Positions 3,582 through 33,257 of a DNA stretch of 57,413 nucleotides are shown piece by piece. Made by a program: the position numbers and the translations under genes. The stretch comes from a virus (Duplodnaviria > Caudoviricetes): positions 1 to 57,413 of the IMG/VR virus record IMGVR_UViG_3300032116_000239; one strand, given 5' to 3'. The notes under the pieces were generated by a model. The model saw only the letters and a program-made list of their open reading frames with translations. It made no database searches and was not told the DNA's origin. Positions within the stretch are counted from its first letter, which is position 1, and each line of letters starts with the position of its first letter.

Positions 3582-3759
3582 TGTTGGCTACACCCAACAG
3601 CATTCACTTGCTAACTACTGCTAACACTTGCAACCCTAAGTCGTTGATTCTTCTAGGATTCGTATGTTAGCCGTGCTATCTTTGGTGCCCAGAAGAAGAG
3701 CCGTGTGATCTAGTGCCATTGCGGGTCTTCAGGGTGTTGGCTACAGTTGTGGCTACACC
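3582..3759. other. attP region: core 3683-3699, IHF site, arm-type repeats
   Basis: TGGTGCCCAGAAGAAGA (3683-3699) is the reverse complement of a tRNA-Leu-like 3' end. TGGCTACA repeats at 3585, 3738 and 3750. Directly upstream of the integrase. Confidence 0.75.
3637..3649 (-). promoter_or_regulatory. IHF binding site
   Basis: Minus strand AATCAACGACTTA is an exact match to WATCAANNNNTTR, inside the att region. Confidence 0.7.
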
Positions 3760-3776
3760 AACACCAAAGGCACGAG

Positions 3777-4790
3777 ATGGCAACTCTCCAGAAACGCGGC
3801 GACGCTTGGCGCGCCGTCATTCGCCGAGTCGGGTTCAAGCCGATCAGCAAGAGCTTCCCCACCAAGGGCCTGGCCCAAGCGTGGGCGCGCAGTGTCGAGA
3901 AGGACATGGACGCTCGGGTCTACCGCGACCCCAGCGGCGCGGCCAAGACCTCGGTGCGCGAGCTCTTTGAGCAGTTCCGCGATGAGGTCTGCCCCGAGCG
4001 CCGGGGTGGCAAGTGGGAGGTCACGCGCATCGAGCGGCTGCTGCGCACCGCGCACTTCGTTGACCAGCGGCTGGACCGCATCACGCCCGAGGACATCCGC
4101 GACTGGCGCAACGAGCGGCTGAAAGAAGTCAGCGCGCCGTCAGTCAACCGCGAACTGAACCTGATCAGCGGCGTGTTCTCGCACGCGATCAAGGAGTGGG
4201 GTGTTGCCCTGCGCGAGAACCCGGTGCACTTGGTCAAGCGCCCGGCCGGCGCGGATCGGGCTCGAACCCGGCGCTTCGGCGAGCGGGAGATCGCAGCTAT
4301 CCTGGAGGCCAGCGGCTACCAGGAGGGCGTGCAGCCCACGGTGGGTCGAGAGTATGTCGGCCACGCGGTGCTGCTGGCGATCGAGACAGCCATGCGGCTG
4401 GGCGAGATCTGTGCACTACGCGTGGGCGACGTGGACTTCGAGGCGTGCAGCGCCACGCTGCACCTGACCAAGAACGGCGACGCGCGCTCGGTGCCGCTGA
4501 GCACCAAGGCGCGGGCGTTGCTGCGCACCCTGGTGACTGGGCGTGACGCCGACGAGCAGGTCGTGCCGCTCACGGCCGAGTCGCTGGGGCTGTACTTCCG
4601 CGAGGCGCGCGACGCCGCGGGTCTGCAGGACCTGCACTTCCACGACACCCGGCACGAGGCCGCCACGCGGCTGAGCAAGAAGCTGTCGAACGTGCTGGAG
4701 CTGTCGGCCGTCACCGGCCACCGCTCGCTGCAGTCGCTCAAGCGGTACTACCAGCCGCGGGCTTCTGAACTTGCATCCAAACTCGGGTAG
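3777..4790 (+). CDS. int: Tyrosine integrase
   Basis: Catalytic motifs TAMRLGEI (R), TKNG (K), FHDTRH (HxxR), GHRS (H), RYY (Y). N-terminal arm-binding MATLQKRG..WRA. Confidence 0.95.
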   Translation: MATLQKRGDAWRAVIRRVGFKPISKSFPTKGLAQAWARSVEKDMDARVYRDPSGAAKTSVRELFEQFRDEVCPERRGGKWEVTRIERLLRTAHFVDQRLDRITPEDIRDWRNERLKEVSAPSVNRELNLISGVFSHAIKEWGVALRENPVHLVKRPAGADRARTRRFGEREIAAILEASGYQEGVQPTVGREYVGHAVLLAIETAMRLGEICALRVGDVDFEACSATLHLTKNGDARSVPLSTKARALLRTLVTGRDADEQVVPLTAESLGLYFREARDAAGLQDLHFHDTRHEAATRLSKKLSNVLELSAVTGHRSLQSLKRYYQPRASELASKLG

Positions 4791-5280
4791 CGAACGGGTG
4801 CTGCTTTGCTTTCGCTTTCAAGTACGCAGCATGCGCTTCTTCGGGGCTGTTGAACCGGCCAAGTCTTACGCGCTCTCCGGCGACAGTGATCTCGGAGTAG
4901 ATAGAGCCGTCGGGAGATATGTGTGCCCCGAGCAGCCCCGACTTGTTATGCGCTTTTGCGTTCGCTTGGTTTTGCTGATTTTCAGCTCGCGTTACGCTGC
5001 GCAGATTGCTTAGCCTGTTGTCGGTCTTGCATCCGTTCTTGTGATCAATGTCCGCCGCAGGCCAAGCGCCGGTCACGAACAACCAGATCAACCGGTGGAT
5101 GTAGACGTCTGCCCCGTTGACTCTTGTCCGCAGATAGCCGTTAGCGCCAACAGAGCCTGCTGCTGCGCCCACGGCGCCGCGGCTTCCGCGCTGCTTCTTG
5201 TTGACCAGTAGGCCCGTCTCCGGGTCGTAGTGGAAGAGGTCGCGTACTAAATCAGCCGTGATAGAGTCTGCCGCGCTCAT
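4738..5280 (-). CDS. HNH homing endonuclease with AP2-like C-terminus
   Basis: YIHRLIW...DIDHKNGCKTDNRLSNLR, followed by SGLLG..LGRF..PEEAHAAY. Confidence 0.9.
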   Translation of the reverse strand: MSAADSITADLVRDLFHYDPETGLLVNKKQRGSRGAVGAAAGSVGANGYLRTRVNGADVYIHRLIWLFVTGAWPAADIDHKNGCKTDNRLSNLRSVTRAENQQNQANAKAHNKSGLLGAHISPDGSIYSEITVAGERVRLGRFNSPEEAHAAYLKAKAKQHPFATRVWMQVQKPAAGSTA

Positions 5281-5350
5281 GGTTTCGTTCTCCTTTAACG
5301 ACACCTGGGAAGTGGCGCCTCAATGTTTGCAGCATTGGGGCGCTGCGCCA

Positions 5351-5901: not shown

Positions 5902-6083
5902 GCCTCACCCTTCGCTTTCTGCGTGCACTCAGCGCAGCGCCACAGGCGCAGCCGGGTGAACAGCGAGCCGCCTCGGATCTCCTTGGGCTGGTCGCAGGCC
6001 GAGCACTTCTTGCGGAAGGCCATGCCGGGGCCGGAGCCGCGTGTGCTCATGCTGACGTCCTTGACGTTGCTGTAGTTCTTCAT
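5898..6083 (-). CDS. Small zinc-finger protein
   Basis: CSAC...CAEC; ATGA overlap with the upstream gene. Confidence 0.6.
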   Translation of the reverse strand: MKNYSNVKDVSMSTRGSGPGMAFRKKCSACDQPKEIRGGSLFTRLRLWRCAECTQKAKGEA

Positions 6084-6373
6084 GGGAGTAGTTGCAGGCC
6101 GGGCGATGAGGTGCGGCCGGTCTTCTCGTTGTAGAGCGTGCCGGTCACCCGGTCGGCGAGGTAGCTCTTGTCCCGCAGCTTCAGCCGGGTGAAGACCTTC
6201 CTCTTCGACTCCAGGTACACGCGCACGTCGCGCTCGATGGGCACCGCCTGGCGCAGCCGCTCCATGTCGAGATCCATCACGCACATCTCCGGGGTGATGC
6301 GGATGATCACCTCGTTCATGGCGCGGAACTCGCCCACGCGGGCGGGCAGGAAAGGCGGCAGGGACTTGCTCAT
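6080..6373 (-). CDS. Hypothetical protein
   Basis: 97-aa ORF with ATGA overlaps in the operon. Confidence 0.6.
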   Translation of the reverse strand: MSKSLPPFLPARVGEFRAMNEVIIRITPEMCVMDLDMERLRQAVPIERDVRVYLESKRKVFTRLKLRDKSYLADRVTGTLYNEKTGRTSSPGLQLLP

Positions 6374-6672
6374 GCCTTGCGGAAGATCCCGTCCTCGCCC
6401 AGCGTGCCCTTGCGGTCCTTGATCTCGGCGTAGGCCGACTCCAGGCAGCTCACCAGATCGACGTCGGCCAGCGCGGCGCCAACGATGAGCGTGACCAGCA
6501 CGTCGCCGTAGGCGTCCACCATCTCTGCGCGGTCGCCCTTGTGAATGGCGCCGATCAACTCGGTCACCTCCTCCAAGGTCTTGATGGCCTGGGCCATCGG
6601 CGTGGAGCGGGGGACGATCTTGCGATCCTCCGCCCAGCGGATCACTTCCAACTCCAACTCTCTGTAGCTCAT
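6370..6672 (-). CDS. MazG-like nucleotide pyrophosphohydrolase
   Basis: WAEDR...KTLEEVTEL...DAYGDVLVTL (EExxE...DxxxD metal-binding pattern). Confidence 0.85.
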   Translation of the reverse strand: MSYRELELEVIRWAEDRKIVPRSTPMAQAIKTLEEVTELIGAIHKGDRAEMVDAYGDVLVTLIVGAALADVDLVSCLESAYAEIKDRKGTLGEDGIFRKA

Positions 6673-6902
6673 CGCGAGTCCTCCTTCATCTCGATCAGTG
6701 GCACCACTTCCCAGTCGCCCCGCGCAGCCATGGCCGCGACGTGCTCGTACTCGTCGGTTACCCGCCAGCGCGATCCCGGCAACTTGTCGGGGTGGAGGCG
6801 GAACCTCCAGGCCACCGGCTGCGGCTTGGGCGTTGGCGCGCACTCGCACTCACCGTCATCGCTGTAGGGCGCCCAGCAGACGCCGCAGACTGTCCTGCTC
6901 AC
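6669..6902 (-). CDS. Hypothetical protein
   Basis: GTG start with overlap. CGVC...CEC and a PVAW motif typical of phage early genes. Confidence 0.55.
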   Translation of the reverse strand: MSRTVCGVCWAPYSDDGECECAPTPKPQPVAWRFRLHPDKLPGSRWRVTDEYEHVAAMAARGDWEVVPLIEMKEDSR

Positions 6903-7045
6903 TTGAGGATCTCCCGCTCCAGCAGCGCCACCGCGTCGGCGATCTGCTCGTAGATGTAGTCGGGCAGGCGGGTGTCGCGCATCAGGCCGGCGCACTCCAG
7001 CGCGCTCAGCAGTCGCAGCACGCGCAGCAGCTCCTCCTTGGTCAT
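6899..7045 (-). CDS. Small hypothetical protein (48 aa, MTKEELLRVLRLLSALE...)
   Basis: Read manually. Fills the gap with 4-nt overlaps at both ends and has a GAGGG RBS. Confidence 0.6.
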   Translation of the reverse strand: MTKEELLRVLRLLSALECAGLMRDTRLPDYIYEQIADAVALLEREILK

Positions 7046-7695
7046 CCCTCACCCCTCTCGTCGTAGGTCACGGTGCTGGTGTCGCCCAGCCTCCACTTCG
7101 CGGTGTTCTCCACCCGGTAGGTCTTGGTGCACACCTTGAAGTCGGGCATGCGCAGCTCGCTGTGCGTGATCGCTGGGTCGAAGAACCTGCAGCGATTGTT
7201 CGGCTGCAGCGCGAACTGGCCATTGTCCAAGCGCAACAGGTTGAAGCTCTTGTGCTCCTCCGGTGTCTCGCTGAACGTGAAGTCCGGTATGCGCGGGTCG
7301 GGGTTGCAGCTGTCGATCGTCAGCATGTACTCGCCCCGGTGGAACTTCCTGTCCTTGCCGTAGAACTCAGCGCGCAGACCCTTGAGGAACGGCTTGTCGA
7401 CCACCTCGATGTGGTAGCTCATGCAGTCCCAGATCTGCAGGATGTCCAGCGGCAGATCGGTGTCGTCATCGATGTGCCCCCAGTCCGGCGTGTAGAACGC
7501 TGAGATCGGCAGCTTGTCGTACAGCGCACCGTACTGCGGCAGGTAGGTCTCAAACCGGAAGGCCTGGCCCCGGATTGATTTGACGCTGACCCACACGCCT
7601 TCGATGAGCGGCGCGTCTTTGTCGCAATCGAAGTCGTACAAGTACTCGGGCCGAACCAGCACCTTCTCAGGCGGCAGAGGACAGACGAAGCTCAT
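7042..7695 (-). CDS. Conserved phage protein of unknown function
   Basis: 217 aa. VRPEYLYD, YGALYDKLPISAF, EHKSFN, QPNNR motifs recalled from many uncultured phages. Confidence 0.75.
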   Translation of the reverse strand: MSFVCPLPPEKVLVRPEYLYDFDCDKDAPLIEGVWVSVKSIRGQAFRFETYLPQYGALYDKLPISAFYTPDWGHIDDDTDLPLDILQIWDCMSYHIEVVDKPFLKGLRAEFYGKDRKFHRGEYMLTIDSCNPDPRIPDFTFSETPEEHKSFNLLRLDNGQFALQPNNRCRFFDPAITHSELRMPDFKVCTKTYRVENTAKWRLGDTSTVTYDERGEG

Positions 7696-7811
7696 AGGAC
7701 ATTCCACCCCAACAGAAACAGCTTCCAGTAGGCCTTGAGGACGAACCCCACGACCGCGATCAGTGCAGCCACGCCGAAGCCGAACGCAGCGACCGACAGG
7801 ATTTTCTCCAT
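7692..7811 (-). CDS. Small membrane protein
   Basis: 39 aa with one hydrophobic helix; overlaps both neighbours. Confidence 0.55.
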   Translation of the reverse strand: MEKILSVAAFGFGVAALIAVVGFVLKAYWKLFLLGWNVL

Positions 7812-7963
7812 CACTTGGTTTTCTCCTTCTTGACTGGCGGGTGCACCACCTCGCGGGTAGTGAACCGATGCAGGTTGGCGCACTCGTAGCGCCGCCGGGT
7901 GTAGCCCGCGAGCTTGCGCGTCTCCAGCACCTCGGTCCAAGTTCCACAGGTCGGGCACTTCAT
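7811..7963 (-). CDS. NrdR-like zinc-ribbon protein
   Basis: MKCPTCG..TEVLETR....RRRYEC...HRFTT matches the NrdR N-terminal Zn ribbon. No ATP-cone. Confidence 0.75.
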   Translation of the reverse strand: MKCPTCGTWTEVLETRKLAGYTRRRYECANLHRFTTREVVHPPVKKEKTK

Positions 7964-8121: not shown

Positions 8122-8342
8122 TTGCGCCCCCGCAGAACTGGCCTGCGCACGGCCGGCCGGCGCAGGCTCTCCAGCCACTCCTGCACATCGGCTTCCAGCC
8201 ACATCACCGCCTTGGTGCCGGGCACCACGAGGCGAGGGGGCAATGTCTCGGGACGCCGGGACACGTCGGACTTCAGCGTAGCCACGCTGCGCCCGAGCAG
8301 CGCGGCCAAGTCGCTCACGGTCAGGGTCTTGAGGGTTGTCAT
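8118..8342 (-). CDS. AlpA/Xis-like helix-turn-helix protein (probable excisionase)
   Basis: LTVSDLAALLGRSVATL...LPPRL...WLEADVQEWL. Confidence 0.75.
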   Translation of the reverse strand: MTTLKTLTVSDLAALLGRSVATLKSDVSRRPETLPPRLVVPGTKAVMWLEADVQEWLESLRRPAVRRPVLRGRK

Positions 8343-8557
8343 TTGGTCATCTCCTGGATCAGCCGGTCGAGGTACCAGCGTGCTTTCTGCAGATCCTCGA
8401 CGCCGTTCTTGAACTTCCAGCGCCACAGGTACTTCATCGCGTTGGCGGTGCACACCGCCTCCATGCCTTGCAGGTCCGCCGTCGCCACCGCGATGGCGTC
8501 GATGCACTCAATGGCCCCCTTGGCGTAGTGCGGGGGGCTGTTCACCATGTCTTTCAT
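8339..8557 (-). CDS. DUF3310 family protein (T7 gp1.7/SaV-like, putative nucleotide kinase)
   Basis: DMVNSPPHY...IECIDAI...NAMKYLWRW..KNGVEDLQKARWYL. Confidence 0.9.
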   Translation of the reverse strand: MKDMVNSPPHYAKGAIECIDAIAVATADLQGMEAVCTANAMKYLWRWKFKNGVEDLQKARWYLDRLIQEMTK

Positions 8558-9303
8558 CAGTCGATCTCCTCGTGGCTTACCAAATCAGGTTCCGCGCCGG
8601 GCAGCCACACCGCCGCAGAGTTGTGTTGTTCAATCCGAGAGGCAATGATTTCGGCGCGCTGGCCTGACGACGGCGGCACGTACATACCGAACCGTGACGT
8701 GGACCCAGCGTTCGACGCGGCGTTGGTGGAGTCCGCACTGGCCAACGGAAGCCGGGTGAACACCTTGGGGTTGAGCATGCGCAGTCCATGCAGCCGGCAC
8801 CACGGGCGGCCGTCTGCGTCGCAGATTGATCGCAAAGCCACGTCAACCCGGGCCCACCAAGGCGCGGTGCCCGGCGTGCGGTACTGCCCGCTTGACCCTA
8901 AAGCCACCGTGTCCCACTCCAAGGCCAGCATCTGGAGCCGCTCAACCGACTCATGCATGTGCCAGACCGGCACACCGCGAATGCGCTTCGGCCAAGCGCG
9001 CAGCAGCTCGTCGTTCTGCTCTTCAGACCCGTCAATGACGTCAGGGATCAACGCCCAATCGAAACCGGGGTGGCGCCGCCACTGATCGCACCAGCGGATG
9101 TAGCCGTCCACGTCAAGCTGGCCGCCCTGTTTCCACACAGTGAACGCGCCGTTGTCAAACACAAACGACTGGCATACGTCGGCCACAACGCCCATGTCGT
9201 CCTGTCTCGGGAACGGCACAAGCGCGTGACGACCACGCAAGAAGCGAACAAGATCCATGCGAGGGCCGCTCACCGGAGTGCCGTGGTAGTGGATCATTTC
9301 CAT
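8557..9303 (-). CDS. TGT/DpdA-like guanine transglycosylase-fold protein
   Basis: FVFDNGAF (cf. DSGxF), LIPDVI, VPVWH, VALGS, LHGL, SADST occur in TGT-barrel order. Adjacent to VUT and QueF-like genes. Confidence 0.7.
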   Translation of the reverse strand: MEMIHYHGTPVSGPRMDLVRFLRGRHALVPFPRQDDMGVVADVCQSFVFDNGAFTVWKQGGQLDVDGYIRWCDQWRRHPGFDWALIPDVIDGSEEQNDELLRAWPKRIRGVPVWHMHESVERLQMLALEWDTVALGSSGQYRTPGTAPWWARVDVALRSICDADGRPWCRLHGLRMLNPKVFTRLPLASADSTNAASNAGSTSRFGMYVPPSSGQRAEIIASRIEQHNSAAVWLPGAEPDLVSHEEID

Positions 9304-9767
9304 CTAGAGAACAACCACGCCCAAGCGGCGCCGCCGGCGGTCTTCGCCACGAACTGCGTCAGAACAACCCAAGGCATCAGCGCTCCAAAGGCCAATGTCG
9401 GGAACAGGACTGAATCGACCGCAGCCCCAGCGGTGTTGCTGCCAACACTGCGCCGCATCCATGACCCCGTCAGCCGGGCAAACACAGACCAGTCAGCAAG
9501 CGCAGCTACAAGGAAGCTGACCGAGCTGGCAATCGCAATTTGATCCGCGGCAGGGTTGAGCAACCATGTGAGCACGCCAGTTCCAACGATCAGCGTTGCC
9601 ATCTGCCAAGTGCGCAATCTGAAGTGCAGCCAATCGCGCAAGGCCAAGTCCAAACCGATCAGCAAGAAAGCGTTCACCGGCGTGACCGCCGGGCCAAACG
9701 CAACGACAAGGAGGTTTGCCGCAACCATTGCGGTGGCGTAAACAACCAGTGCAAAAACGACAGTCAT
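9294..9767 (-). CDS. VUT (Vut_1/YhhQ-like) queuosine-precursor transporter
   Basis: Hydrophobic 157 aa with AANLLV, LRDWLH, IAIASSVSFLVAALADW, SN..GAAVDSVLF.TLAFG, QFVAK signatures. Confidence 0.8.
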   Translation of the reverse strand: MTVVFALVVYATAMVAANLLVVAFGPAVTPVNAFLLIGLDLALRDWLHFRLRTWQMATLIVGTGVLTWLLNPAADQIAIASSVSFLVAALADWSVFARLTGSWMRRSVGSNTAGAAVDSVLFPTLAFGALMPWVVLTQFVAKTAGGAAWAWLFSRWK

Positions 9768-10003
9768 GGCCTGATGCTTTCAATCGTGACGCCGTGGTGT
9801 TCAGCCACGAGTTTCTGTTCGCCCCCGAACACCCGGAACAACTGATCCGCAATGTCCTCGTGGTAGCCCCGGTGATGCAAAGTCACCTCGTCGATGAGAT
9901 CCTCAACCTTGATCATTTGGTTGGTTTGGATCTCCAGGGCGTACCGAATCCGCACGCCGTTTTCCGGGCACACCGAAAAGAACTCAGTGCGATAGATGTT
10001 CAT
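9764..10003 (-). CDS. Minimal QueF/QueF-L-like T-fold protein
   Basis: TEFFSVCPENG (cf. EFTSxCPxTG, catalytic Cys), KVE, GYHEDIAD (cf. FHE), HHGV. Confidence 0.65.
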   Translation of the reverse strand: MNIYRTEFFSVCPENGVRIRYALEIQTNQMIKVEDLIDEVTLHHRGYHEDIADQLFRVFGGEQKLVAEHHGVTIESIRP

Positions 10004-12015
10004 CAGTCGATCTCCTTCATGTAGTACCGGGTCTCGAACCCGTCGCCGCGCAGCAGCAGGTCGGGCGCCCAGGCGATGGGCTGGCCGAGGACGGCCTCCA
10101 CATCGGCCAGGGAGCCGACCCCGTCTGCTGCCTCAATCACGATCTCGTCGTGGATCGTCATCAGTTGCTGGTAACCCCGCTCGTCCAGGCGCAGCATCGC
10201 CTCGCGCAGGCAGTCACGAGCGATGGCCTGCGTGACGTTCTCCACCAACTTGCCGCCGTAGCTGGACAGCCGGGTCCACTGCTTGGTCTTCTGGTCCAGG
10301 CCCTCGTAGGTCAAGCTGCCGGCCGAGGCGACGATGAAGCGGCCACCGTCAGCGGTCTCGCGGTACAGGTCCTCGGCCTCCAAGCGTGGCTTGACGTAGG
10401 CCAAGCGCCGGCCCGAGGGCAGGGTGATGAACAGGAACCCGCTCTCCCAGGCGAACACCAGCTTGGCGCGGCCGGCTGCGATCGGCAGGACCACCGTCGT
10501 GCGCTGACCCACTGCGAGCTTGGCTGCGCGCTCCATGGCGTACCAGAGCTCGACCACCTCGGGGTTGGCCTGGCGCCAGGCGTTCTTGATGTCCTCCAGC
10601 TCGTCCTCGGGCACACCCATCTCCAGCGCGCCCATGGTCTTGAGCGCGTTGGCGCCGCCCTGGTATCCGAGCGCGAGCTCGGCCACCTTGCCGCGTTGCC
10701 GATACGGGGACTTCTTGGTGACGGAGCCAGGCGGCAGCTTGAACATCTGCTCGGCCGACGCCTCGTAGATCTTGCCGTGGGTGGCGAACACCTCCAGCCG
10801 CCACGCGCACCACGCGAGCCACGCCACCACCCGGGCCTCGATCGCGGAGAAGTCCACGACGATGAACCGGTGGCCGGGCTCGGCGATGAACGCAGTGCGG
10901 ATCAGCTGGCTGAGCGTGTCGGCGGTGCCGAACAGCATCTCCAGGTCCTCGAACCGCCCGGCGATCACGAGCTCACGCGCGAGGTCCAGGTCGCGCAGCT
11001 TGTTCTGCGGCAGGTTCTGCACCTGCACCAGCCGCCCGGCCCAGCGCCCGGTGCGGTTGGCGCCGTAGAACTGCGTCAGCCCGCGCACGCGGTCGTCGCG
11101 GCACGCGGCGCGCTGCATGGCTTGGTACTTGGTCACACTGGTCTTGGCCAGCTCCTGGCGGATGCGCAGCACGCGCTGCACCGTCTGGCTGTCCGTGGCG
11201 GCCAGCAGCTTGGGCACCGACTTCTTGGTCAAGTCGGCCACCTCCTGCTCGGTCTCCTCTTCGAGCCAGGCGATGAGCTGGTCGCGGCTGTTGGGGTTGG
11301 TCAGCCCGGTCAGCGCCACCGCCTCGGACACGAGCATGGCCTTGATGCGCGCGTCGGCGGTGATCGCGTTGTCCACCAGCGTGCGGTGCACGCGGATGCC
11401 GCGGTTGTTCATCTTCTGGTCCAGGTGCCACAGCCGCCACTCCACCGCGGGCACGGGGAACTTCGACAGCCGCCGGGCCACCTCGCGCTCGGTCTCGACG
11501 TCGCGTGCGCAGTAGTCCTTGAACAGCTGCCACCGGGCCGGGTCGTGGTGCGGCAGGTTGCGCGTGCGCCCACCGTTGGTCTTGGTCGGCTTGCACGGGA
11601 TGCAGAAGTAGCGGATCAGCGCACCGCCCACGCCCATCTTCTGCTTGTCCTGGTCCAGCCCGAGCACGCGGCCGACGTCGCCCAGGCTGCCCGGCAGACC
11701 GAGGTAGAGCGAGTGCACCGACGTGCACTGCCACTGCGTGACGTCGAGCTGCAGGCCGAAGTGCTTGCTTATGCATGCCACCTCGAAGGCCGCGTTGAAG
11801 GCGGTCTTCGTCACCTCGGGGTCGGTCAGGTCGTGCAGCACATGCTGCGGCAGCGCCTGGCCCTGCAGCAGGTCCACGACGTTGACCGAGGAGTCACCGT
11901 AGGCGTAGCCGAACAGCGTGACCTCGAAGTCGTCGCTCTCCACGTAGCGGTGGACGCCGCATTTGCGCAGGTCCACGCTGCTGTAGGTCTCGATGTCGAT
12001 GCGTAGGGTTGTCAT
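10003..12015 (-). CDS. Family A DNA polymerase (APSE/SPO2-type)
   Basis: Exo motifs DIETYS and AFNAAFE; RTGRW; motif A DFSAIEAR; motif B RGKVAELALGY; motif C IHDEIV. Confidence 0.95.
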   Translation of the reverse strand: MTTLRIDIETYSSVDLRKCGVHRYVESDDFEVTLFGYAYGDSSVNVVDLLQGQALPQHVLHDLTDPEVTKTAFNAAFEVACISKHFGLQLDVTQWQCTSVHSLYLGLPGSLGDVGRVLGLDQDKQKMGVGGALIRYFCIPCKPTKTNGGRTRNLPHHDPARWQLFKDYCARDVETEREVARRLSKFPVPAVEWRLWHLDQKMNNRGIRVHRTLVDNAITADARIKAMLVSEAVALTGLTNPNSRDQLIAWLEEETEQEVADLTKKSVPKLLAATDSQTVQRVLRIRQELAKTSVTKYQAMQRAACRDDRVRGLTQFYGANRTGRWAGRLVQVQNLPQNKLRDLDLARELVIAGRFEDLEMLFGTADTLSQLIRTAFIAEPGHRFIVVDFSAIEARVVAWLAWCAWRLEVFATHGKIYEASAEQMFKLPPGSVTKKSPYRQRGKVAELALGYQGGANALKTMGALEMGVPEDELEDIKNAWRQANPEVVELWYAMERAAKLAVGQRTTVVLPIAAGRAKLVFAWESGFLFITLPSGRRLAYVKPRLEAEDLYRETADGGRFIVASAGSLTYEGLDQKTKQWTRLSSYGGKLVENVTQAIARDCLREAMLRLDERGYQQLMTIHDEIVIEAADGVGSLADVEAVLGQPIAWAPDLLLRGDGFETRYYMKEID

Positions 12016-12019
12016 GTGT

Positions 12020-12058
12020 CCTCTTCGGTGAGGGCCCAACAGGCGCTCACCGAAAAGG
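12020..12058 (-). promoter_or_regulatory. Hairpin overlapping the DNA polymerase RBS
   Basis: Minus strand CCTTTTCGGTGAGCGCC-TGTTG-GGCCCTCACCGAAGAGG, then ACAC-ATG. Confidence 0.55.
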
Positions 12059-12086: not shown

Positions 12087-12320
12087 TCACTCGGTGCGCC
12101 AGACGCGCACGCCGCCGTCGACCTTGCGCACGGTGAACTTGCGACCCAGCTGCTTGGCGGCGGTCGTAGCCCCGCGGCTCACGCTCGCTGCGCGAGCCTT
12201 CTGGTCAGCAGCTGCGGCCTCAACAAGGAAGCTGTCACCCACGGCCATGCTGGGCCAGGGGTACTTGCTGACGCGCGTGCGCAGCGGGGGCACAGGGACG
12301 CCTTTGTCGATCGTGATCAT
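12087..12320 (-). CDS. Small phage DNA-binding-like protein
   Basis: IDKGVPVP...KYPWPSMAVGDSFLV...GVRVWR, a widespread small phage family. Confidence 0.75.
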   Translation of the reverse strand: MITIDKGVPVPPLRTRVSKYPWPSMAVGDSFLVEAAAADQKARAASVSRGATTAAKQLGRKFTVRKVDGGVRVWRTE

Positions 12321-12847
12321 GCGAGGAACTCCTCTTGCACTGCGGTGAAGTCGTCTTCGGCGCGGCTGCGGCCCGACAAGGGCTCGCCGTCGGCCACCTT
12401 CTGGACGTTGCCAAGGCCCGCAGCGACGCCGCGGTTGCCGTTCTGGTTGTAGGCGTAGAAGTTGATCGACACGCGGCCGTAGCAGCCGCTGTACACCTCG
12501 TCGGCGTTCAGGATCGGCTGCACGCTGGCATCGACCACCTGGGGACGCTGCTTGCTGGTGGCGTTGATGAACCAATGCCCGCGGTACTCGGGGCTGTCGC
12601 GCTCGACGTCACCGTCGCGCAGCGGCACCTTCAGGCCCGGGGGCACCTTACCGCCCCAAGTAGGCTTCCCAGCCTCCTTGGCGGCCTCGATCGCCGCCTT
12701 GATCTTGTTGACCGTGGCGGTATCAGTTTTTGGCACCAAGACACACACGCTGTACTTGGGCTCTTGGCCCTCGTTCTGCGCGCGTGGCTGGAACAGGTTG
12801 ACGTAGGACAAACGGGCCTTGCCCGTGACGATCTTCGTTGCGCTCAT
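12317..12847 (-). CDS. ssDNA-binding protein (DUF2815, T7 gp2.5-like)
   Basis: RLSYVNLF, KYSV, PLRDGD, VYSGCYGR, GLGNVQK; acidic tail. Confidence 0.9.
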   Translation of the reverse strand: MSATKIVTGKARLSYVNLFQPRAQNEGQEPKYSVCVLVPKTDTATVNKIKAAIEAAKEAGKPTWGGKVPPGLKVPLRDGDVERDSPEYRGHWFINATSKQRPQVVDASVQPILNADEVYSGCYGRVSINFYAYNQNGNRGVAAGLGNVQKVADGEPLSGRSRAEDDFTAVQEEFLA

Positions 12848-12861
12848 CTGGAGCTCCTTGA

Positions 12862-14040
12862 TTACGAAAAGTCCGCCGCAGCTGATGCGACGGAATTGAG
12901 AGCCGGCCTCTTGTCAGAGTCCGGCACAAGCGTGGGCTTGCCTTGCGGCTTGACCACGAGATCGCTGATCAGCTCAGCGAATACCTTCTTACCCAGCGCC
13001 TTCTCCATGGCCGTGATGCCGAGGAGGCTGCGTTCGTAGATCACTTCCGCGGGGATCCCGGCGGCGATCAGCTTCGCGGCCACCTGGTCGTGGTCCACGT
13101 ACTTGCGGTTGGCCCGACCCTCGACCAGCTTGAAGCCGGGCACGGTGTGGCCGGTCTCGGCCTGCGACAGGGCGTAGGTCTTGACGTCCTGCAGCCAGGC
13201 GATGGCCTCATCGGCGCGCGGTAGGATCGCGGCTATCTGGTCAACGGTGAGCAGTTCTGGAGGGGTGAACTCGCGCTTGGCCAGGGCCAGGTTGTGCTGC
13301 GCCCGAGCTGCGCAGGTGTAGCGCGCCTTGCAGAACCCCGACGTGCAGTGCTCGCCGGCCACGAACTCGCCAGCCCCGTCCCACGCCAGCGTGGCGCGCG
13401 GGCGCACGTAGTCGTCGGCCCACCGGGTCAGCTCGTCGACGGTCAGCTCCTCGCTGCTGTAGTTGCCGAGCCGCGGCTGCAGGACGGTGGTCTTCACAGA
13501 CCGCGCGTCGAACAGGTGACCCAGCTGGTGCAGCGCGCCGAGCGCGTACAGGCGCATCTGGCTGTTGTCGATCGCGCTGACCGGCACGCCCTTGCCACCC
13601 TTGAGATCGAGCGCATGAAGGCACTGGTCGCTGACGATCACCAGGTCGCCGGTGCCGAACCCCTCGGGCACCCACGGGCTGAAGTCCAGGCGCTGCTCCA
13701 GCAGCACGATGCAGTCCGGTGTGTCCTTGCGCGCTTGCTCGATCACGTTCTCAGCAAACGCCACCGCCTCGCGCACCGCCTCGTCCAGCTCGGCTGTCCA
13801 GAACCCGTCGGCATGCAGTCGCCCGAGGCGGTCCTCGAACTCCTGCGCAGTAATGCGCTGCAAGTAGTTGAGCAGCAGCAACTCGAAGAGCTCGTGCATG
13901 AACGTGCCCTCAGCCGCGAAGGTTGAGCGCTCGTCCGGGAACTGCTCTTCCAGCCTGGCGCTGGGGCTGCAGGTCAGCCACTTCTTGGAGCCGCTGGCGC
14001 TGAGCTTGGCGTGCAGCTTCACGACGGCGGTGCTGCTCAT
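12862..14040 (-). CDS. DUF2800 Cas4-like PD-(D/E)xK exonuclease
   Basis: HAKLSASG..W..C, EGT..H, EQRLDFS, GFGTGD, DLKGGKG, QMRLYALG, C-terminal Cys cluster. Confidence 0.9.
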   Translation of the reverse strand: MSSTAVVKLHAKLSASGSKKWLTCSPSARLEEQFPDERSTFAAEGTFMHELFELLLLNYLQRITAQEFEDRLGRLHADGFWTAELDEAVREAVAFAENVIEQARKDTPDCIVLLEQRLDFSPWVPEGFGTGDLVIVSDQCLHALDLKGGKGVPVSAIDNSQMRLYALGALHQLGHLFDARSVKTTVLQPRLGNYSSEELTVDELTRWADDYVRPRATLAWDGAGEFVAGEHCTSGFCKARYTCAARAQHNLALAKREFTPPELLTVDQIAAILPRADEAIAWLQDVKTYALSQAETGHTVPGFKLVEGRANRKYVDHDQVAAKLIAAGIPAEVIYERSLLGITAMEKALGKKVFAELISDLVVKPQGKPTLVPDSDKRPALNSVASAAADFS

Positions 14041-14258
14041 ACCGGCGCGCCTTCGATGTCGCCCTTGGGGACCTCGCGCATGAACCACTGCGCAGCGGCC
14101 TCGCTGATCTGCTGCGCGTGGGCGGCGATGTACGAGGCCACGATCAGGGCCGCCGTCGGCGCGGGCAGATCGGCGCCTGGCTCATGGCCGTCGATGCGGC
14201 CTTCCATGTTCAACGTGCCCTCAGGCCCGTCGGTGATGGTCACGATGCAGGTAGTCAC
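14037..14258 (-). CDS. Hypothetical protein
   Basis: 73 aa, translationally coupled. Confidence 0.6.
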   Translation of the reverse strand: MTTCIVTITDGPEGTLNMEGRIDGHEPGADLPAPTAALIVASYIAAHAQQISEAAAQWFMREVPKGDIEGAPV

Positions 14259-29624: not shown

Positions 29625-31916
29625 ATGTTTCCAGTACCGACCCACGGCTTGATGGGGGCGATGTCGGGTGCCGACATCTCGGCAGGCGTTGCGTTGGCGC
29701 TGGACTTCATCAACGGCGCCACCAGCCTCGATCGCCGCATCACCTTCTCCCGCACCACCAACGCCACGCTGACGGACAGCACGGGCAAGATTGCCTACGC
29801 GCCACACAACCTGCTGACGAACTCGGAAAACTTTGAGGCGGCGGCTTGGGCTAAATCCGCTGGTGCCAGCGTATCTGCAAACTCAACGATTGCACCTGAT
29901 GGTACTTTGACCGCCGACACAGTGACGTTTGCGGCAAGTTCAGACTTCATCAACCAGCAAATCCTGTCCTACTCCGCAGTCAACGGGCAATCAGTCACGT
30001 TCTCAATCTATGCCAGAACGGCAACACAGCTTATTGTCTTCGGCGGCGCATCGCCTGCTGGCACGGACGTATTTACAGCAACTGCTGTAGGCGGCGGTTG
30101 GTTCCGTCAAGTTGTAACACGCACCTTCACGGTGACTGTATCTGGCACTTTGCAGTTGCTGCCAGCGGGCTTGATTATCGGAGCGGGTAGTTTTCCTATC
30201 TGGGGAGCCCAACTCAACATCGGAAGCACTGCACAGTCCTACAACTCCACCACGCCCAAGAACCTGCTTGGCTTCACTCAGGAGCCTGAGAACGCAGCGT
30301 GGACCAAGAGCAACTCGTATGTGCAGCAGAACTTGCTGACATGGAGTCAGGACTTTGACAATGCGGCTTGGAACAAAGGCAACGTAACCGTTACTGCCAA
30401 TGCCGCCATTGCTCCTGACGGATCGGCCACCGCAGACAACCTTGTAACGGTGGCTACAACAGCAATTACGGGCCCTTTCACTGTTGCTGGAGTTGCGTCT
30501 GCTACCAATACGCAGAGCTTCTACGTCAAGCAAAACGTCGGCATTCGCTATGTCCAACTCTTGTGGACGAGTTCAGGAACGTCTTCTGACTATGCTGACT
30601 TTGATCTGCAAACCGGAACACTGACGGCTGGTTCCTACGCTGGAGCGTCAATCACAGCAGCAGGGAATGGCTGGTACAGAATCAGCCTGACCTCTGCGTT
30701 GTCTGCAACCGCAGGTGGTCCTTGGTTGATTGCAATTCCAACATCCACTGCTGGCCGTGGCGCAACGTATGTGGGCAACGGTACTGACGCGCTGTTTGTC
30801 TGGGGCGCTCAACTCGTCCAAGGCTCCGTCCCCGGCGATTACCAAGTCACGACCTCTGCTGCTGCGGCGGTGCAGTACAGCGATCCAAACGGGACTCGGA
30901 CGGCGGATAAGTTGGTTGAGGATGCAGCCACAGCGTTCCATTACGCTTTTCAATTAGCAACCCCTTCTAACTCAGCGCCATACACCGTTAGTTTGTATGC
31001 CAAAGCTGCCGAAAGAACTCGACTGCGAATAAGTGGTAGCGCATCAAGTTGGGCATCTCAATCAATTGCCGTTTTTGACCTCTTAAATGGGACGGTTGTC
31101 ACTAATAGTGGCGCGTTTACAAGTGCAAGTATTGTTAGTGTTGGTAATGGGTGGTATCGCTGTACAGCAACAGGCTTGTCAAATGCAGCGCCAACACCCT
31201 CTCAGGAGATGGTTCAGATAGTTTTGGTTAGCTCCGGAACTACGGCCTCCTACACCGGCGACGGCACCTCTGGCATCTTCATCTGGGGAGCCCAGCTCAG
31301 CAACAGCGCCAGCGTGGACCCCTACGTCTACAACCCGCAAGCAGCGCCCACCAGCACGGCCTACTACGGCCCGAGGTTTGACTACAACCCGGTGACGCTG
31401 GCGGCTAACGGGCTGCTGATTGAGCAACAGTCAACCAATCTTCTGTTGTGGTCTGAGGATTTCAGCAATGCGGTTTGGGTGAACAACGGTGGAACCGTAA
31501 CGTCAAATGCGTTAGTCGCGCCTGATGGCACAACGACTGCGGATTATTTGGTTCGTTCCACAGCATCTGGTGATGGTAGATATCAAGCAATATCTGCTGG
31601 AACATCTGGAGTTTTGACAGCTTCAATTTACATCAAGAAAGACACGGCGGTAAATTCTGCCATTTGGATTTACGACGCTACGGCTGTAGCGGATAGAGCG
31701 TTTGCGACCATTACTTGGTCCGGTTCCACTCCGACACTTACGGCAACAGTCGGCACTGCTGGAACACCCATAGACGCTGGTAATGGTTGGTGGCGTATAT
31801 CAATCACCTCAACAGCGCTAGTTGGGGCGAACACCAATCGCCTCTACTTGTTGCCAGCGTACACCGCTTCTAGCAATGGACAACAGACGGCATTCTGGGG
31901 TGCCCAGCTGGAGTAA
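29625..31916 (+). CDS. Head/tail fibre (spike) protein, N-terminal part
   Basis: Four NLL...WGAQL beta-sandwich modules, plus PRFDY..GLLIE..TNLL. Ends abruptly at WGAQLE. Confidence 0.8.
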   Translation: MFPVPTHGLMGAMSGADISAGVALALDFINGATSLDRRITFSRTTNATLTDSTGKIAYAPHNLLTNSENFEAAAWAKSAGASVSANSTIAPDGTLTADTVTFAASSDFINQQILSYSAVNGQSVTFSIYARTATQLIVFGGASPAGTDVFTATAVGGGWFRQVVTRTFTVTVSGTLQLLPAGLIIGAGSFPIWGAQLNIGSTAQSYNSTTPKNLLGFTQEPENAAWTKSNSYVQQNLLTWSQDFDNAAWNKGNVTVTANAAIAPDGSATADNLVTVATTAITGPFTVAGVASATNTQSFYVKQNVGIRYVQLLWTSSGTSSDYADFDLQTGTLTAGSYAGASITAAGNGWYRISLTSALSATAGGPWLIAIPTSTAGRGATYVGNGTDALFVWGAQLVQGSVPGDYQVTTSAAAAVQYSDPNGTRTADKLVEDAATAFHYAFQLATPSNSAPYTVSLYAKAAERTRLRISGSASSWASQSIAVFDLLNGTVVTNSGAFTSASIVSVGNGWYRCTATGLSNAAPTPSQEMVQIVLVSSGTTASYTGDGTSGIFIWGAQLSNSASVDPYVYNPQAAPTSTAYYGPRFDYNPVTLAANGLLIEQQSTNLLLWSEDFSNAVWVNNGGTVTSNALVAPDGTTTADYLVRSTASGDGRYQAISAGTSGVLTASIYIKKDTAVNSAIWIYDATAVADRAFATITWSGSTPTLTATVGTAGTPIDAGNGWWRISITSTALVGANTNRLYLLPAYTASSNGQQTAFWGAQLE

Positions 31917-31921
31917 CCAAC

Positions 31922-32404
31922 ATGATGGAACACGACCTCGTAAAAGAACTGTTTGACTATCGTGATGGTCACTTGTACTGGAAGAAGAAAACCAACAAGA
32001 GACACAGCATCGACAAGCCCGCTGGGACGATCAACTCCCTTGGCTACGTTGTCATCACGCTCAACGGCAAGAAGATGCATGAGCACAGGCTGGTGTGGTT
32101 GTGGCACGGCAAAGAGTTGCCTGTGATGATTGACCACATCAACCGAGACAAGTCAGACAACAGGATTGAGAACCTTCGCGCTGCTGACTACATCACCAAC
32201 TCGTACAACAGCAAGCTGAAGACCGACAACACCTCTGGCGTCAAAGGCGTGAGTTGGTGCAATACCTACAACAAGTGGGTTGTGCAGATTTACGCGAACA
32301 AGCAGAAGATTTCTAAACGGTTTGACCTGATGCAAGATGCCATTGACTTTGCCAAGCAAAAGCGCCAAGAGTTGCATCAAGCATTTGCCTGTGAAGGGGT
32401 ATAA
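31922..32404 (+). CDS. HNH homing endonuclease inserted in the fibre gene
   Basis: HEHRLVW...IDHINRDKSDNRIENLR, NTSGVKGVSW. Confidence 0.9.
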   Translation: MMEHDLVKELFDYRDGHLYWKKKTNKRHSIDKPAGTINSLGYVVITLNGKKMHEHRLVWLWHGKELPVMIDHINRDKSDNRIENLRAADYITNSYNSKLKTDNTSGVKGVSWCNTYNKWVVQIYANKQKISKRFDLMQDAIDFAKQKRQELHQAFACEGV

Positions 32405-32406
32405 AA

Positions 32407-32934
32407 ATGGCAGCATTTGCTACATCGTATATACCGACACAAGCCTCCCAAGTCACCCGAGCAGCGGACAATGCGTCGATGCTGGGGGATAACTTTGCGA
32501 CTTGGTTCAATGCGAGTCAGGGGACGTTGTACGCGGAAGCCACAAGCAGTGTTCCTAGTTCCGATGCAGTGGTTAGGTTTGCTGCCGTTGTGTTTGACGC
32601 AGCTAGCTACTCAAATGCTTTGAGACTTGAGCGTCTTGGTGGTTCTGCTAGGTATGTCCAAACCGTGAGCGGAGTAAGCAACGTAGCAACCGCGACTTGG
32701 AACGCGGGCGATACGGTTGCAATAGCAGCGGCATACCAAAACAGCAATAACGCAGCAGCGTTCAACGGCGGGGCAGCACAGGCTGTTGCTGGCAACGTGC
32801 CGACGGGGCTTGTAACTCTTGGCATAGGCGGCCACGGCACGATAAGCGCTAACAGTCTTTGCGGGTATGTGCGCTCCATCAGCTACTACCCCACGCGCCT
32901 GTCCAACGCAACTCTTCAGGCCATCACAGCATGA
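32407..32934 (+). CDS. Fibre protein C-terminal part (LamG/ConA-like)
   Basis: Begins AFATSYIPT...VTRAAD, the usual continuation of WGAQLE. Ends YYPTRLSNATLQAIT. Confidence 0.8.
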   Translation: MAAFATSYIPTQASQVTRAADNASMLGDNFATWFNASQGTLYAEATSSVPSSDAVVRFAAVVFDAASYSNALRLERLGGSARYVQTVSGVSNVATATWNAGDTVAIAAAYQNSNNAAAFNGGAAQAVAGNVPTGLVTLGIGGHGTISANSLCGYVRSISYYPTRLSNATLQAITA

Positions 32935-33257
32935 CCGACGAAACCCTAACCGAGCCCATCGTCCAAGAGGGCTACTGCGACTACATGGTGGTCTTCGCTG
33001 ATGAGGATGAGGCTATTGCAGTCCTGTACGACTCAACCACCGATGGTGAAGGCAACGTGACGCTGACGCCGCGCTTCACTGCGGTGGACATGATCGGCAC
33101 GATTTACGAGCCTGCGCCTGATCCGGTGCCTGAGAACTACAAGCCGCTGCCGTACACGGGCTACCACGCCAACGTGCGCAACATCGGGCCAGCGCCTGAG
33201 CTGGATGCGTTTGTGGTGAGCCCGACTCCCGTAACTCCTCTTCGTGTGTGGGCCTGA
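32931..33257 (+). CDS. Fibre-associated small protein
   Basis: D.IGTIY...GYHANVR...P.TPLRVWA motif usually found after this fibre type. Confidence 0.65.
   Translation: MTDETLTEPIVQEGYCDYMVVFADEDEAIAVLYDSTTDGEGNVTLTPRFTAVDMIGTIYEPAPDPVPENYKPLPYTGYHANVRNIGPAPELDAFVVSPTPVTPLRVWA

Follow-up and report, generated by a model that had tools for sequence, protein, structure and literature searches.

Can a phage that encodes no pathway to the 7-deazaguanine precursor preQ0 (7-cyano-7-deazaguanine) write a 7-deazaguanine into its DNA, and what might a very small, unannotated protein contribute to that process? The question is raised by the IMG/VR record IMGVR_UViG_3300032116_000239, a Caudoviricetes genome whose whole length of 57,413 bp (CheckV completeness 100%, G+C content about 65%) is the window analyzed here. 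Directly downstream of its DNA polymerase gene lie three open reading frames (ORFs), which a first-pass annotation had described as tightly coupled and as encoding a miniature QueF- or QueF-L-like protein, a VUT/YhhQ-type membrane protein and a short enzyme of the tRNA-guanine transglycosylase (TGT) or DpdA type without a cysteine-rich zinc site. The coordinates are exact, the ORFs are all on the minus strand with overlaps of 1 to 10 nt, the sequence motifs that had been pointed out are present in the translations, and the searches described below bear out each of the three identifications. The three genes, listed with the G+C content at their third codon positions (GC3), are as follows.

9764-10003, minus strand: 79-aa T-fold protein, QueF/QueF-L-like (phrog_37496, E = 1.5e-21; AlphaFold2 model; GC3 0.738)
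9294-9767, minus strand: 157-aa VUT/YhhQ-like membrane protein (Vut_1; phrog_4899, E = 1.5e-33; GC3 0.671)
8557-9303, minus strand: DpdA-like protein of 248 aa, or 246 aa from the second ATG (phrog_887, E = 4.4e-70; GC3 0.763)

Taken as an explanation of the whole, there is roughly an even chance (about 0.5) that the trio is a 7-deazaguanine DNA-modification module working on preQ0 that comes from the host or from import, with the T-fold protein as a partner that targets the nitrile non-reductively. The identity of the module, DpdA together with a supply of precursor, is highly probable. Within it, the conserved unit is the pair formed by the T-fold protein and DpdA; the VUT protein is an accessory.

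The 79-aa protein carries the motifs EFFSVCP (residues 7-13) and YHE (residues 47-49), belongs to no Pfam or NCBIfam family, and falls in a PHROG labelled 'unknown function' (phrog_37496). Its AlphaFold2 model, built with 18 homologues, is a T-fold of topology bbaabb with a predicted local distance difference test score (pLDDT) of 95.7, and Foldseek and VIA-align agree that QueF-L is its top solved match. In particular, the QueF-L structures 5jyx and 5k0p align over 79 of 79 residues (Z = 12.8 and 12.7) with a root-mean-square deviation (rmsd) of 1.2 Å, while GTP cyclohydrolase I domains align over all 79 residues at Z = 10-11 (best 11.0) and B. subtilis QueF (4f8b) reaches Z = 9.6. Moreover, the closest named clusters in the ESM Atlas are PF14489 QueF (template modeling score 0.85-0.86), and a viral 'archaeosine synthase' ranked third in a BFVD search. 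When residues 1-79 of the model are laid on residues 10-100 of the QueF-L chain, Cys12 falls on Cys21; a hidden Markov model (HMM) alignment of a 126-member family profile with QueF-L likewise places CP on C21-P22 and HE on HE, at an E-value of only 1.7, and the same CP and HE register holds against a host unimodular QueF. Across the 126 members, Y4, C12, E49 and H69 are invariant, and N2, F8, P13, Y21, E34, H48, A52, D53, L55, G61, A67, I74, T76 and R78 are conserved in at least 90%.

Cys21 of QueF-L and Cys55 of QueF form a thioimide with preQ0, and the two enzymes follow a common path to this intermediate before a different attacker, ammonia in QueF-L and an NADPH hydride in QueF, resolves it (PMC5485725). 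The motif by which QueF binds NADPH, E(S/L)K(S/A)hK(L/Y)(Y/F/W) (PMC10516641), is not found in the 79-aa protein, where the aligned stretch VEDLIDEVT keeps E34 alone and has no lysines. Further, the conserved Asp that serves as general acid/base in QueF-L (PMC5485725), located at position Cys+7 of QueF and QueF-L, is aligned with I19, part of a hydrophobic column, and the loop has no conserved acidic column in the T-fold alignments. With this Asp absent and Tyr4 and His69 invariant, the chemistry of the T-fold protein may differ from that of QueF and QueF-L, and its catalytic apparatus is probably modified. Because the protein keeps the cysteine and the base anchor and has no NADPH site, it should form the preQ0 adduct and either resolve it non-reductively or hold it. 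Overall, the identification as a QueF/QueF-L-derived T-fold with a thioimide-forming Cys and a His-Glu base anchor is strongly supported; the protein is QueF/QueF-L-like in its fold and in two catalytic positions, and lies outside the sequence models of both families. Two other identities were ruled out, that of a true QueF reductase by the missing NADPH motif and that of a DpdC-like protein because DpdC is a DUF328 protein and not a T-fold (PMC5699537).

The presumed partner, the 248-aa protein, carries the motifs DNGAF (50-54), PDVI (87-90), VWH (113-115) and ADST (190-193), and the PHROG to which it belongs is named 'queuine tRNA-ribosyltransferase'. The Pfam TGT profile PF01702 gave nothing at E <= 1, NCBIfam gave no match either, and sequence searches of the PDB with the protein alone and with its profiles found no TGT or DpdA match. 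This DpdA type was detected by tblastn in 130 of 50,697 phage records; matches include P22-like phages such as BTP1 (47% identity), the DpdA of Pantoea phage MED16 (36%, 3e-32), the DpdA of Salmonella phage 7-11 (33%, 1e-20) and, weakly, a Seuratvirus '7-deazaguanosine inserting enzyme DpdA' (24%, 4e-5). In an alignment of seven phage DpdAs, including the annotated Seuratvirus enzyme, every sequence has D50 (in DNGAF), H115 (in VWH) and D191-S192 (in ADST). By motif likeness, we take D50, H115 and D191 to correspond to the acid/base, the base-binding His and the nucleophile of a Salmonella DpdA. For the enzyme of S. Montevideo, Asp95 has been described as acid/base and Asp256 as nucleophile, together with a base-binding His (PMC10164549). 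No cysteine column is conserved across the seven sequences (C44, C161 and C169 are kept just among close relatives), which indicates that a TGT-type zinc site is absent.

AlphaFold2 models the DpdA-like protein, with moderate confidence (pLDDT 72), as a TIM barrel. Among 48,161 representative chains its best structure matches are archaeal TGT (Z = 13.6), Cap10 (13.3), the DpdA structure 7ui4 (12.8) and bacterial TGT (12.6), and when the 1000 best Foldseek chains were re-ranked, 50 of the 50 matches listed belonged to the TGT superfamily (Z = 12.8-13.4). The margin to unrelated barrels is small, so the fold match supports a TGT-type barrel and does not prove it. At 246-248 aa, the protein is without the C-terminal parts of TGTs, whose aligned chains have 325-577 residues. 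Together, these results strongly support its identification as a minimal DpdA of the 'DpdA-only' clade, which also holds those of phages 7-11 and MED16. In studied phages with DpdA and no precursor genes, dADG (2'-deoxy-7-amido-7-deazaguanosine) makes up 0.13% (MED16) or 0.02% (7-11) of G (PMC8306585, PMC6884629).

Evidence that the two proteins belong together comes from the distribution of their genes. An exhaustive profile search for the T-fold family returned 510 representative proteins (50% identity clusters) at E <= 1e-3, 305 of them at <= 1e-10, and the genomic neighborhoods of 83 loci (80 from IMG/VR and 3 from isolated phages, forming 49 clusters at 90% T-fold identity) were surveyed. 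A DpdA-like ORF adjoins the T-fold gene on the same strand in 82 of the 83 loci, abutting or overlapping it in 70 of these and separated from it by 124-959 nt in the other 12. The pair is kept in 48 of the 49 non-redundant clusters, with the T-fold gene preceding dpdA in 32 and following it in 16; tight coupling in both gene orders is good evidence for a functional pair. The VUT gene, which in the window sits between the two, accompanies them in 18 of 83 loci, or 8 of 49 clusters, and its placement varies. The first-pass expectation that the trio would be conserved as a unit therefore stands for the pair and fails for the transporter. Besides DpdA and VUT, nothing was conserved among same-strand ORFs within 3.5 kb of the T-fold gene, the other frequent neighbor clusters consisting of various replication genes or of ORFs in alternative frames of GC-rich DNA. 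The sole exception to the pairing, locus L044 (T-fold gene at 6001-6240), lacks a DpdA-like gene both within 6 kb and in the rest of its record (37% complete); the neighbors of its T-fold gene are unknown proteins.

Among the 50,697 phage records, the T-fold gene occurs in 4 records (3 phages), compared with the 130 that have this DpdA type, and one carrier of the pair is the cultured temperate Pseudomonas phage Epa33. No T-fold gene was found beside dpdA in MED16, 7-11, BTP1 or VogelGryff, where the best result of an unfiltered hmmsearch was an antisense ORF at E = 0.027. A complex prediction for DpdA and the T-fold protein scored 0.00, which gives no answer in either direction.

Some family members are longer and carry additional domains. 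A second domain was recognizable in 5 of the 10 long forms scanned, and none was recognizable in the other 5. The natural fusions are as follows.

P0148: VUT transporter fused to the T-fold
P0152, 214 aa: nucleoside 2-deoxyribosyltransferase domain fused to the T-fold
P0027: PTPS/QueD-like T-fold modules fused to the T-fold
P0047: the same kind of fusion
P0067: the same kind of fusion

The fusion in P0152 hints at a route via free nucleosides or nucleotides in some viruses. In the ESM Atlas, an archaeal cluster of QueF-domain proteins has a nucleoside 2-deoxyribosyltransferase domain in 10% of its members. P0076 (443 aa) and P0066 (295 aa) have in common an N-terminal domain of some 130 residues, without a Pfam or PHROG match, and carry the T-fold C-terminal to it.

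From where would such a pair obtain preQ0? In the whole record, profile searches found no QueC (PF06508), QueD/PTPS (PF01242), FolE (PF01227) or Radical_SAM protein (PF04055, as a stand-in for QueE), with controls that were positive in 10-14 of 14 reference genomes. Likewise, a search of the 32 related viral records (out of the 80) that reach 30 kb detected neither QueC nor QueD in any of them, including the 24 with a completeness of 90% or more. It is thus strongly supported that the phage itself makes no preQ0. A scan of bacterial genomes with one narrow peptide pattern yielded five loci, which are no measure of prevalence in bacteria; the T-fold-bearing genomes are those of Roseateles, two Phytopseudomonas, Paraburkholderia and Cupriavidus. 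QueC is encoded in all five and QueF in four of them, and the presence of QueC in every carrier genome means that the host can supply preQ0. The precursor genes looked for are indeed missing from the window, but the label 'salvage-only' given to the cassette at first makes too much of import, since the host's own preQ0 is no less likely to be the source than uptake is. Import via VUT would then be an optional extra, and host QueF presumably a competitor for preQ0.

The membership of the 157-aa protein in the VUT family is clear. It matches Pfam Vut_1 at E = 2.1e-8 with 35.1 bits, above the cut-off of 27.2, along the C-terminal half of the profile (positions 66-141 out of 152); when the record was searched independently, the values were 3.1e-9 and 32.8 bits, and a pairwise comparison with the 159-aa 'preQ0 transporter YhhQ' of Seuratvirus VogelGryff gave 28% identity over 96 aa (E = 3e-9). 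The NCBIfam equivalogs are missed widely (PRK11212, 17.7 bits against 252; TIGR00697, 14.6 against 50.95). Its identification as a phage-type mini-YhhQ is strongly supported. A transport role is suggested by context, namely its position next to DpdA and the T-fold protein, the P0148 fusion and the homology to the Seuratvirus YhhQ, making it a putative importer of 7-deazaguanine precursors, with preQ0 or preQ1 (7-aminomethyl-7-deazaguanine) as the candidate substrate.

Together, these parts suggest the following mechanism. preQ0 would be drawn from the host's QueC pathway and, where VUT is present, additionally from outside the cell. In the cytoplasm, Cys12 of a T-fold oligomer would attack the nitrile of free preQ0, and the resulting adduct would be resolved without reduction, either by ammonia to yield an amidine (archaeosine base, G+) or by water to yield an amide (7-amido-7-deazaguanine, ADG); alternatively, the adduct might just shield the base from host QueF before handing it on. 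DpdA would then exchange guanine in phage DNA for the resulting base, with Asp50 as acid/base and Asp191 as nucleophile. We judge it somewhat probable that the T-fold protein acts on the nitrile of preQ0 and, if it does, give a similar degree of preference to the free base over the DNA-bound base as its substrate. Action on a free base in the cytoplasm is favored by the fusions to VUT, deoxyribosyltransferase and PTPS modules, and also by the acidic charge of the copy in the window (about -5, as counted from the translation). The T-fold protein may decide which modified base enters the DNA. A bolder version is tentative and more doubtful: that the 79-aa protein is the smallest known T-fold enzyme and performs a new, cofactor-free nitrile conversion, with Cys12 as nucleophile and with His69 and Tyr4 taking over from the Asp of QueF, making an amidine or amide base from host preQ0 that DpdA writes into DNA at protective levels as 2'-deoxyarchaeosine (dG+) or as a derivative so far unseen in DNA.

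Several observations weigh against this explanation. At the sequence level, Pfam QueF (PF14489) did not match the 79-aa protein at E <= 1, and the same profile missed the T-fold genes of the five bacterial carrier genomes yet detected their true QueF. The alignment of the T-fold profile with QueF-L 5jyx is not significant (the E of 1.7 given above), and hhalign comparisons of T-fold profiles with QueF sequences gave probabilities of 0.4-13%. In particular, a T-fold profile scored 0.4% against four host QueFs, on the wrong stretch, and the 126-member profile, compared with 57 QueFs out of 120 listed sequences (mostly truncated and 60-88% identical), scored 12.6% in local and 3.1% in global mode, with the residues paired as expected; sequence searches of the PDB with the T-fold protein and its profile found no QueF match. 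The general acid/base Asp of QueF and QueF-L has no counterpart in the T-fold family, in which Tyr4 and His69 are invariant instead, and the acidic charge of the present copy is not a family trait (mean -1.4, range -9 to +9, with 35 of 126 members at or above 0). The DpdA model has a pLDDT of just 72, and unrelated TIM barrels reach Z = 12.1. Finally, MED16 and 7-11 carry dADG (0.02-0.13%) though they have no T-fold gene near dpdA, from which it follows that DpdA of the 'DpdA-only' clade works without a T-fold partner, and the modification in MED16 had no visible effect on the restriction enzymes reported in PMC8306585.

The main rival to action on the free base is a true QueF-L role after insertion, in which DpdA would insert preQ0 and the T-fold protein would use free ammonium to convert dPreQ0 into dG+, acting as a DNA archaeosine synthase. 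This order of events suits the structural comparison, where no solved structure matches better than QueF-L (Z = 12.8; 79 residues at an rmsd of 1.2) and the NADPH motif is absent in both, and it suits known chemistry: QueF-L turns over preQ0 only when it is bound to nucleic acid, its free-base adduct being inert (PMC5485725), and the free G+ base deamidates spontaneously (PMC5699537), so that making G+ before insertion is disfavored. The 35 of 126 family members that are neutral or basic are also compatible with a nucleic-acid substrate. The fusions to a transporter, a deoxyribosyltransferase and PTPS-like modules, however, suit small-molecule chemistry, the copy in the window is acidic (about -5), the acid/base Asp of QueF-L is missing, and the T-fold protein is 30 residues shorter than QueF-L; on this evidence, conversion after insertion is rather unlikely. 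A third possibility leaves the T-fold protein without turnover, either as a sponge for preQ0 or as an inhibitor of the host's QueF, so that preQ0 would rise for DpdA or host tRNA would be starved of queuosine. QueF-type proteins form stable thioimides when given free preQ0 (PMC5485725), a protein that binds and does not turn over could well have lost the NADPH motif as well as the Asp, and QueF, a competitor for preQ0, is encoded in four of the five carrier genomes. Yet Tyr4, His69, Asp53 and Arg78 are invariant or nearly so, which is more than binding alone would need, stoichiometric capture would be costly, and proteobacterial QueF is bimodular, so mixed oligomers with a unimodular mini-protein are presumably improbable; this role has little likelihood.

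Two further alternatives concern the substrates rather than the order of events. The T-fold protein might have a metal site like that of GTP cyclohydrolase I, formed by Cys12, His48 and His69, and act on a pterin, GTP, preQ1 or 7-carboxy-7-deazaguanine (CDG). GTP cyclohydrolase I domains do align over all 79 residues (Z = 10-11), His69 is invariant and the Asp of QueF is missing, PTPS-like modules are joined to some members, and Cys55 of QueF is the counterpart of a FolE zinc ligand. In its CP and HE motifs, however, as in its best structural and Atlas matches, the protein is of the QueF type and not of the FolE type, and its strict linkage to DpdA in phages that have neither QueC nor QueD suits a late pathway step rather than an early one, which leaves such chemistry improbable. 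Least likely is that the transglycosylase targets host or phage tRNA instead of DNA. Its fold and its PHROG name are those of tRNA-guanine transglycosylases, but its gene lies within a DNA replication operon, its 246-248 aa do not include the C-terminal parts of TGTs, and its nearest studied relatives, in 7-11 and MED16, have 7-deazaguanine in virion DNA (PMC6884629, PMC8306585). Modification of phage DNA from host-made or imported preQ0, with the T-fold protein acting on the free base, thus remains the preferred reading.

The genomic setting of the cassette is a replication and recombination module that runs along the minus strand from about 14.1 to 3.7 kb, as determined from the ORF list and Pfam/PHROGs scans, and that also includes an excisionase-like gene. 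Its other features are as follows.

12862-14088, minus strand: exonuclease (GC3 0.868)
12317-12847, minus strand: Gp2.5-like single-stranded DNA-binding protein (GC3 of this SSB-like gene 0.864)
10003-12039, minus strand: family A DNA polymerase PolA, 678 aa (PF00476, 4.7e-21; phrog_17, 7.1e-136; GC3 0.940)
8339-8557, minus strand: DUF3310 protein, 72 aa (PF11753, 3e-16; GC3 0.890)
7042-7947, minus strand: phrog_3704 protein labelled 'ferredoxin' (5.3e-85)
6370-6849, minus strand: MazG-like pyrophosphatase (phrog_1992, 1.7e-23)
4738-5304, minus strand: HNH endonuclease, beside the integrase (phrog_99, 2.3e-53; GC3 0.667)
3747-4790, plus strand: tyrosine integrase (Pfam/PHROGs scans)

The genes for PolA, the T-fold protein, VUT, DpdA and the DUF3310 protein overlap successively and are therefore read as a single unit. 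PolA and the T-fold gene overlap by 1 nt (TGATG), the T-fold and VUT genes by 4 nt (ATGA), and DpdA and DUF3310 by 1 nt; the VUT and DpdA genes overlap by 10 nt from the first ATG of dpdA, or by the usual 4-nt ATGA from its second ATG at 9297. The latter is probably the start, because it is used by the database gene call (246 aa) and agrees with the homologue consensus (MIHYHG). PolA is the first gene in this translationally coupled run and is context only, outside the modification chemistry. The lower third-position G+C of the cassette, at first judged by eye, was borne out by calculation (GC3 0.67-0.76, compared with 0.86-0.94 in neighboring replication genes), and it fits acquisition of the cassette from elsewhere. 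The phage that carries the module is temperate.

The DUF3310 gene lies beside the T-fold/DpdA pair in just 3 of 83 loci and is not conserved with it. In Salmonella phage 7-11, the dpdA neighbor gp033 (locus L095, 1986-2261), annotated as a deoxynucleoside monophosphate kinase, is weakly like the DUF3310 protein of the window (pairwise E = 2e-4 over 30 aa). The MazG-like gene and the phrog_3704 'ferredoxin' gene lie just 3′ of the cassette in the same orientation. The HNH gene has a GC3 as low as that of the cassette, which suggests another mobile insertion. The deepest G+C dip of the record is at 30001-33000 (0.51-0.55, compared with about 0.65 overall).

How much of this module is new? DpdA-bearing phages that lack preQ0 genes have already been published, as have phage homologues of YhhQ (PMC6884629, section 8), and the only new part is the small T-fold partner. 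A full-text literature search returned no description of the 79-aa protein; the per-phage gene tables of two surveys (Supplementary Data 1 in PMC6884629, Data S1 in PMC10516641) lay outside that search and could mention the family. The search likewise returned no DNA-modification data for cultured carriers of the T-fold gene. According to the 2023 survey, no phage QueF aligned with QueF-L (PMC10516641); given that survey, the mini T-fold would be the first phage lineage of the QueF-L type. In the 2019 survey, no group was larger than that of the phages with DpdA and without precursor genes (76 out of 182 viruses), and their modification status was described as hard to predict (PMC6884629); the origin of the trace dADG in the studied members is given as an open question (PMC8306585). 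A family that is widespread (510 clusters), unannotated, coupled to DpdA and equipped with a nitrile-attacking cysteine is a concrete candidate for the missing step. If the bolder version above is correct, it would explain how those deazaguanine phages whose group is both the largest and the least understood, with DpdA and no pathway genes, come by an effective modification, and Epa33, as a cultured carrier, makes the question directly testable. Moreover, the protein would extend T-fold chemistry and provide a compact two- to three-gene tool for installing 7-deazaguanines in DNA.

Among known systems, the closest are the 'DpdA-only' phages 7-11 (gp032) and vB_PagS_MED16 (gp38), assigned to group 3 by Hutinet et al. 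in 2019 (PMC6884629), whose short transglycosylases are homologous to that of the window (33-36% identity). They share its invariant Asp, His and Asp-Ser, its lack of preQ0 synthesis genes and the position of dpdA among replication genes; in contrast to the window, no T-fold gene lies within 2.5 kb of their dpdA, and the stretches examined contain no VUT gene. QueF-L of Pyrobaculum calidifontis (5jyx, 5k0p) resembles the 79-aa protein in its fold, its Cys and His-Glu register and its lack of the NADPH motif. The two differ in that the phage protein is 30 residues shorter, has 15-19% identity, lacks the Cys+7 Asp and has invariant Tyr4 and His69, and in their setting: the T-fold protein occurs in bacterial phages beside a DNA transglycosylase, whereas QueF-L occurs in archaea with archaeal TGT. 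QueF, represented by the B. subtilis enzyme (4f8b) and by validated phage QueFs (PMC10516641), shares the T-fold and the EFxxxCP and (F/Y)HE motifs; in contrast, the CP...D loop of the 79-aa protein is about 3 residues shorter and the protein has no Pfam QueF match. Further, the phage QueFs described so far accompany a full FolE-QueDEC set, whereas the mini T-fold family accompanies none. A similar distinction applies to the transporter: the YhhQ of Queuovirinae (Escherichia phages CAjan and VogelGryff) is also a mini-VUT of 157-159 aa beside deazaguanine genes, but it accompanies a complete preQ0 pathway, for which the VUT protein of the window stands in.

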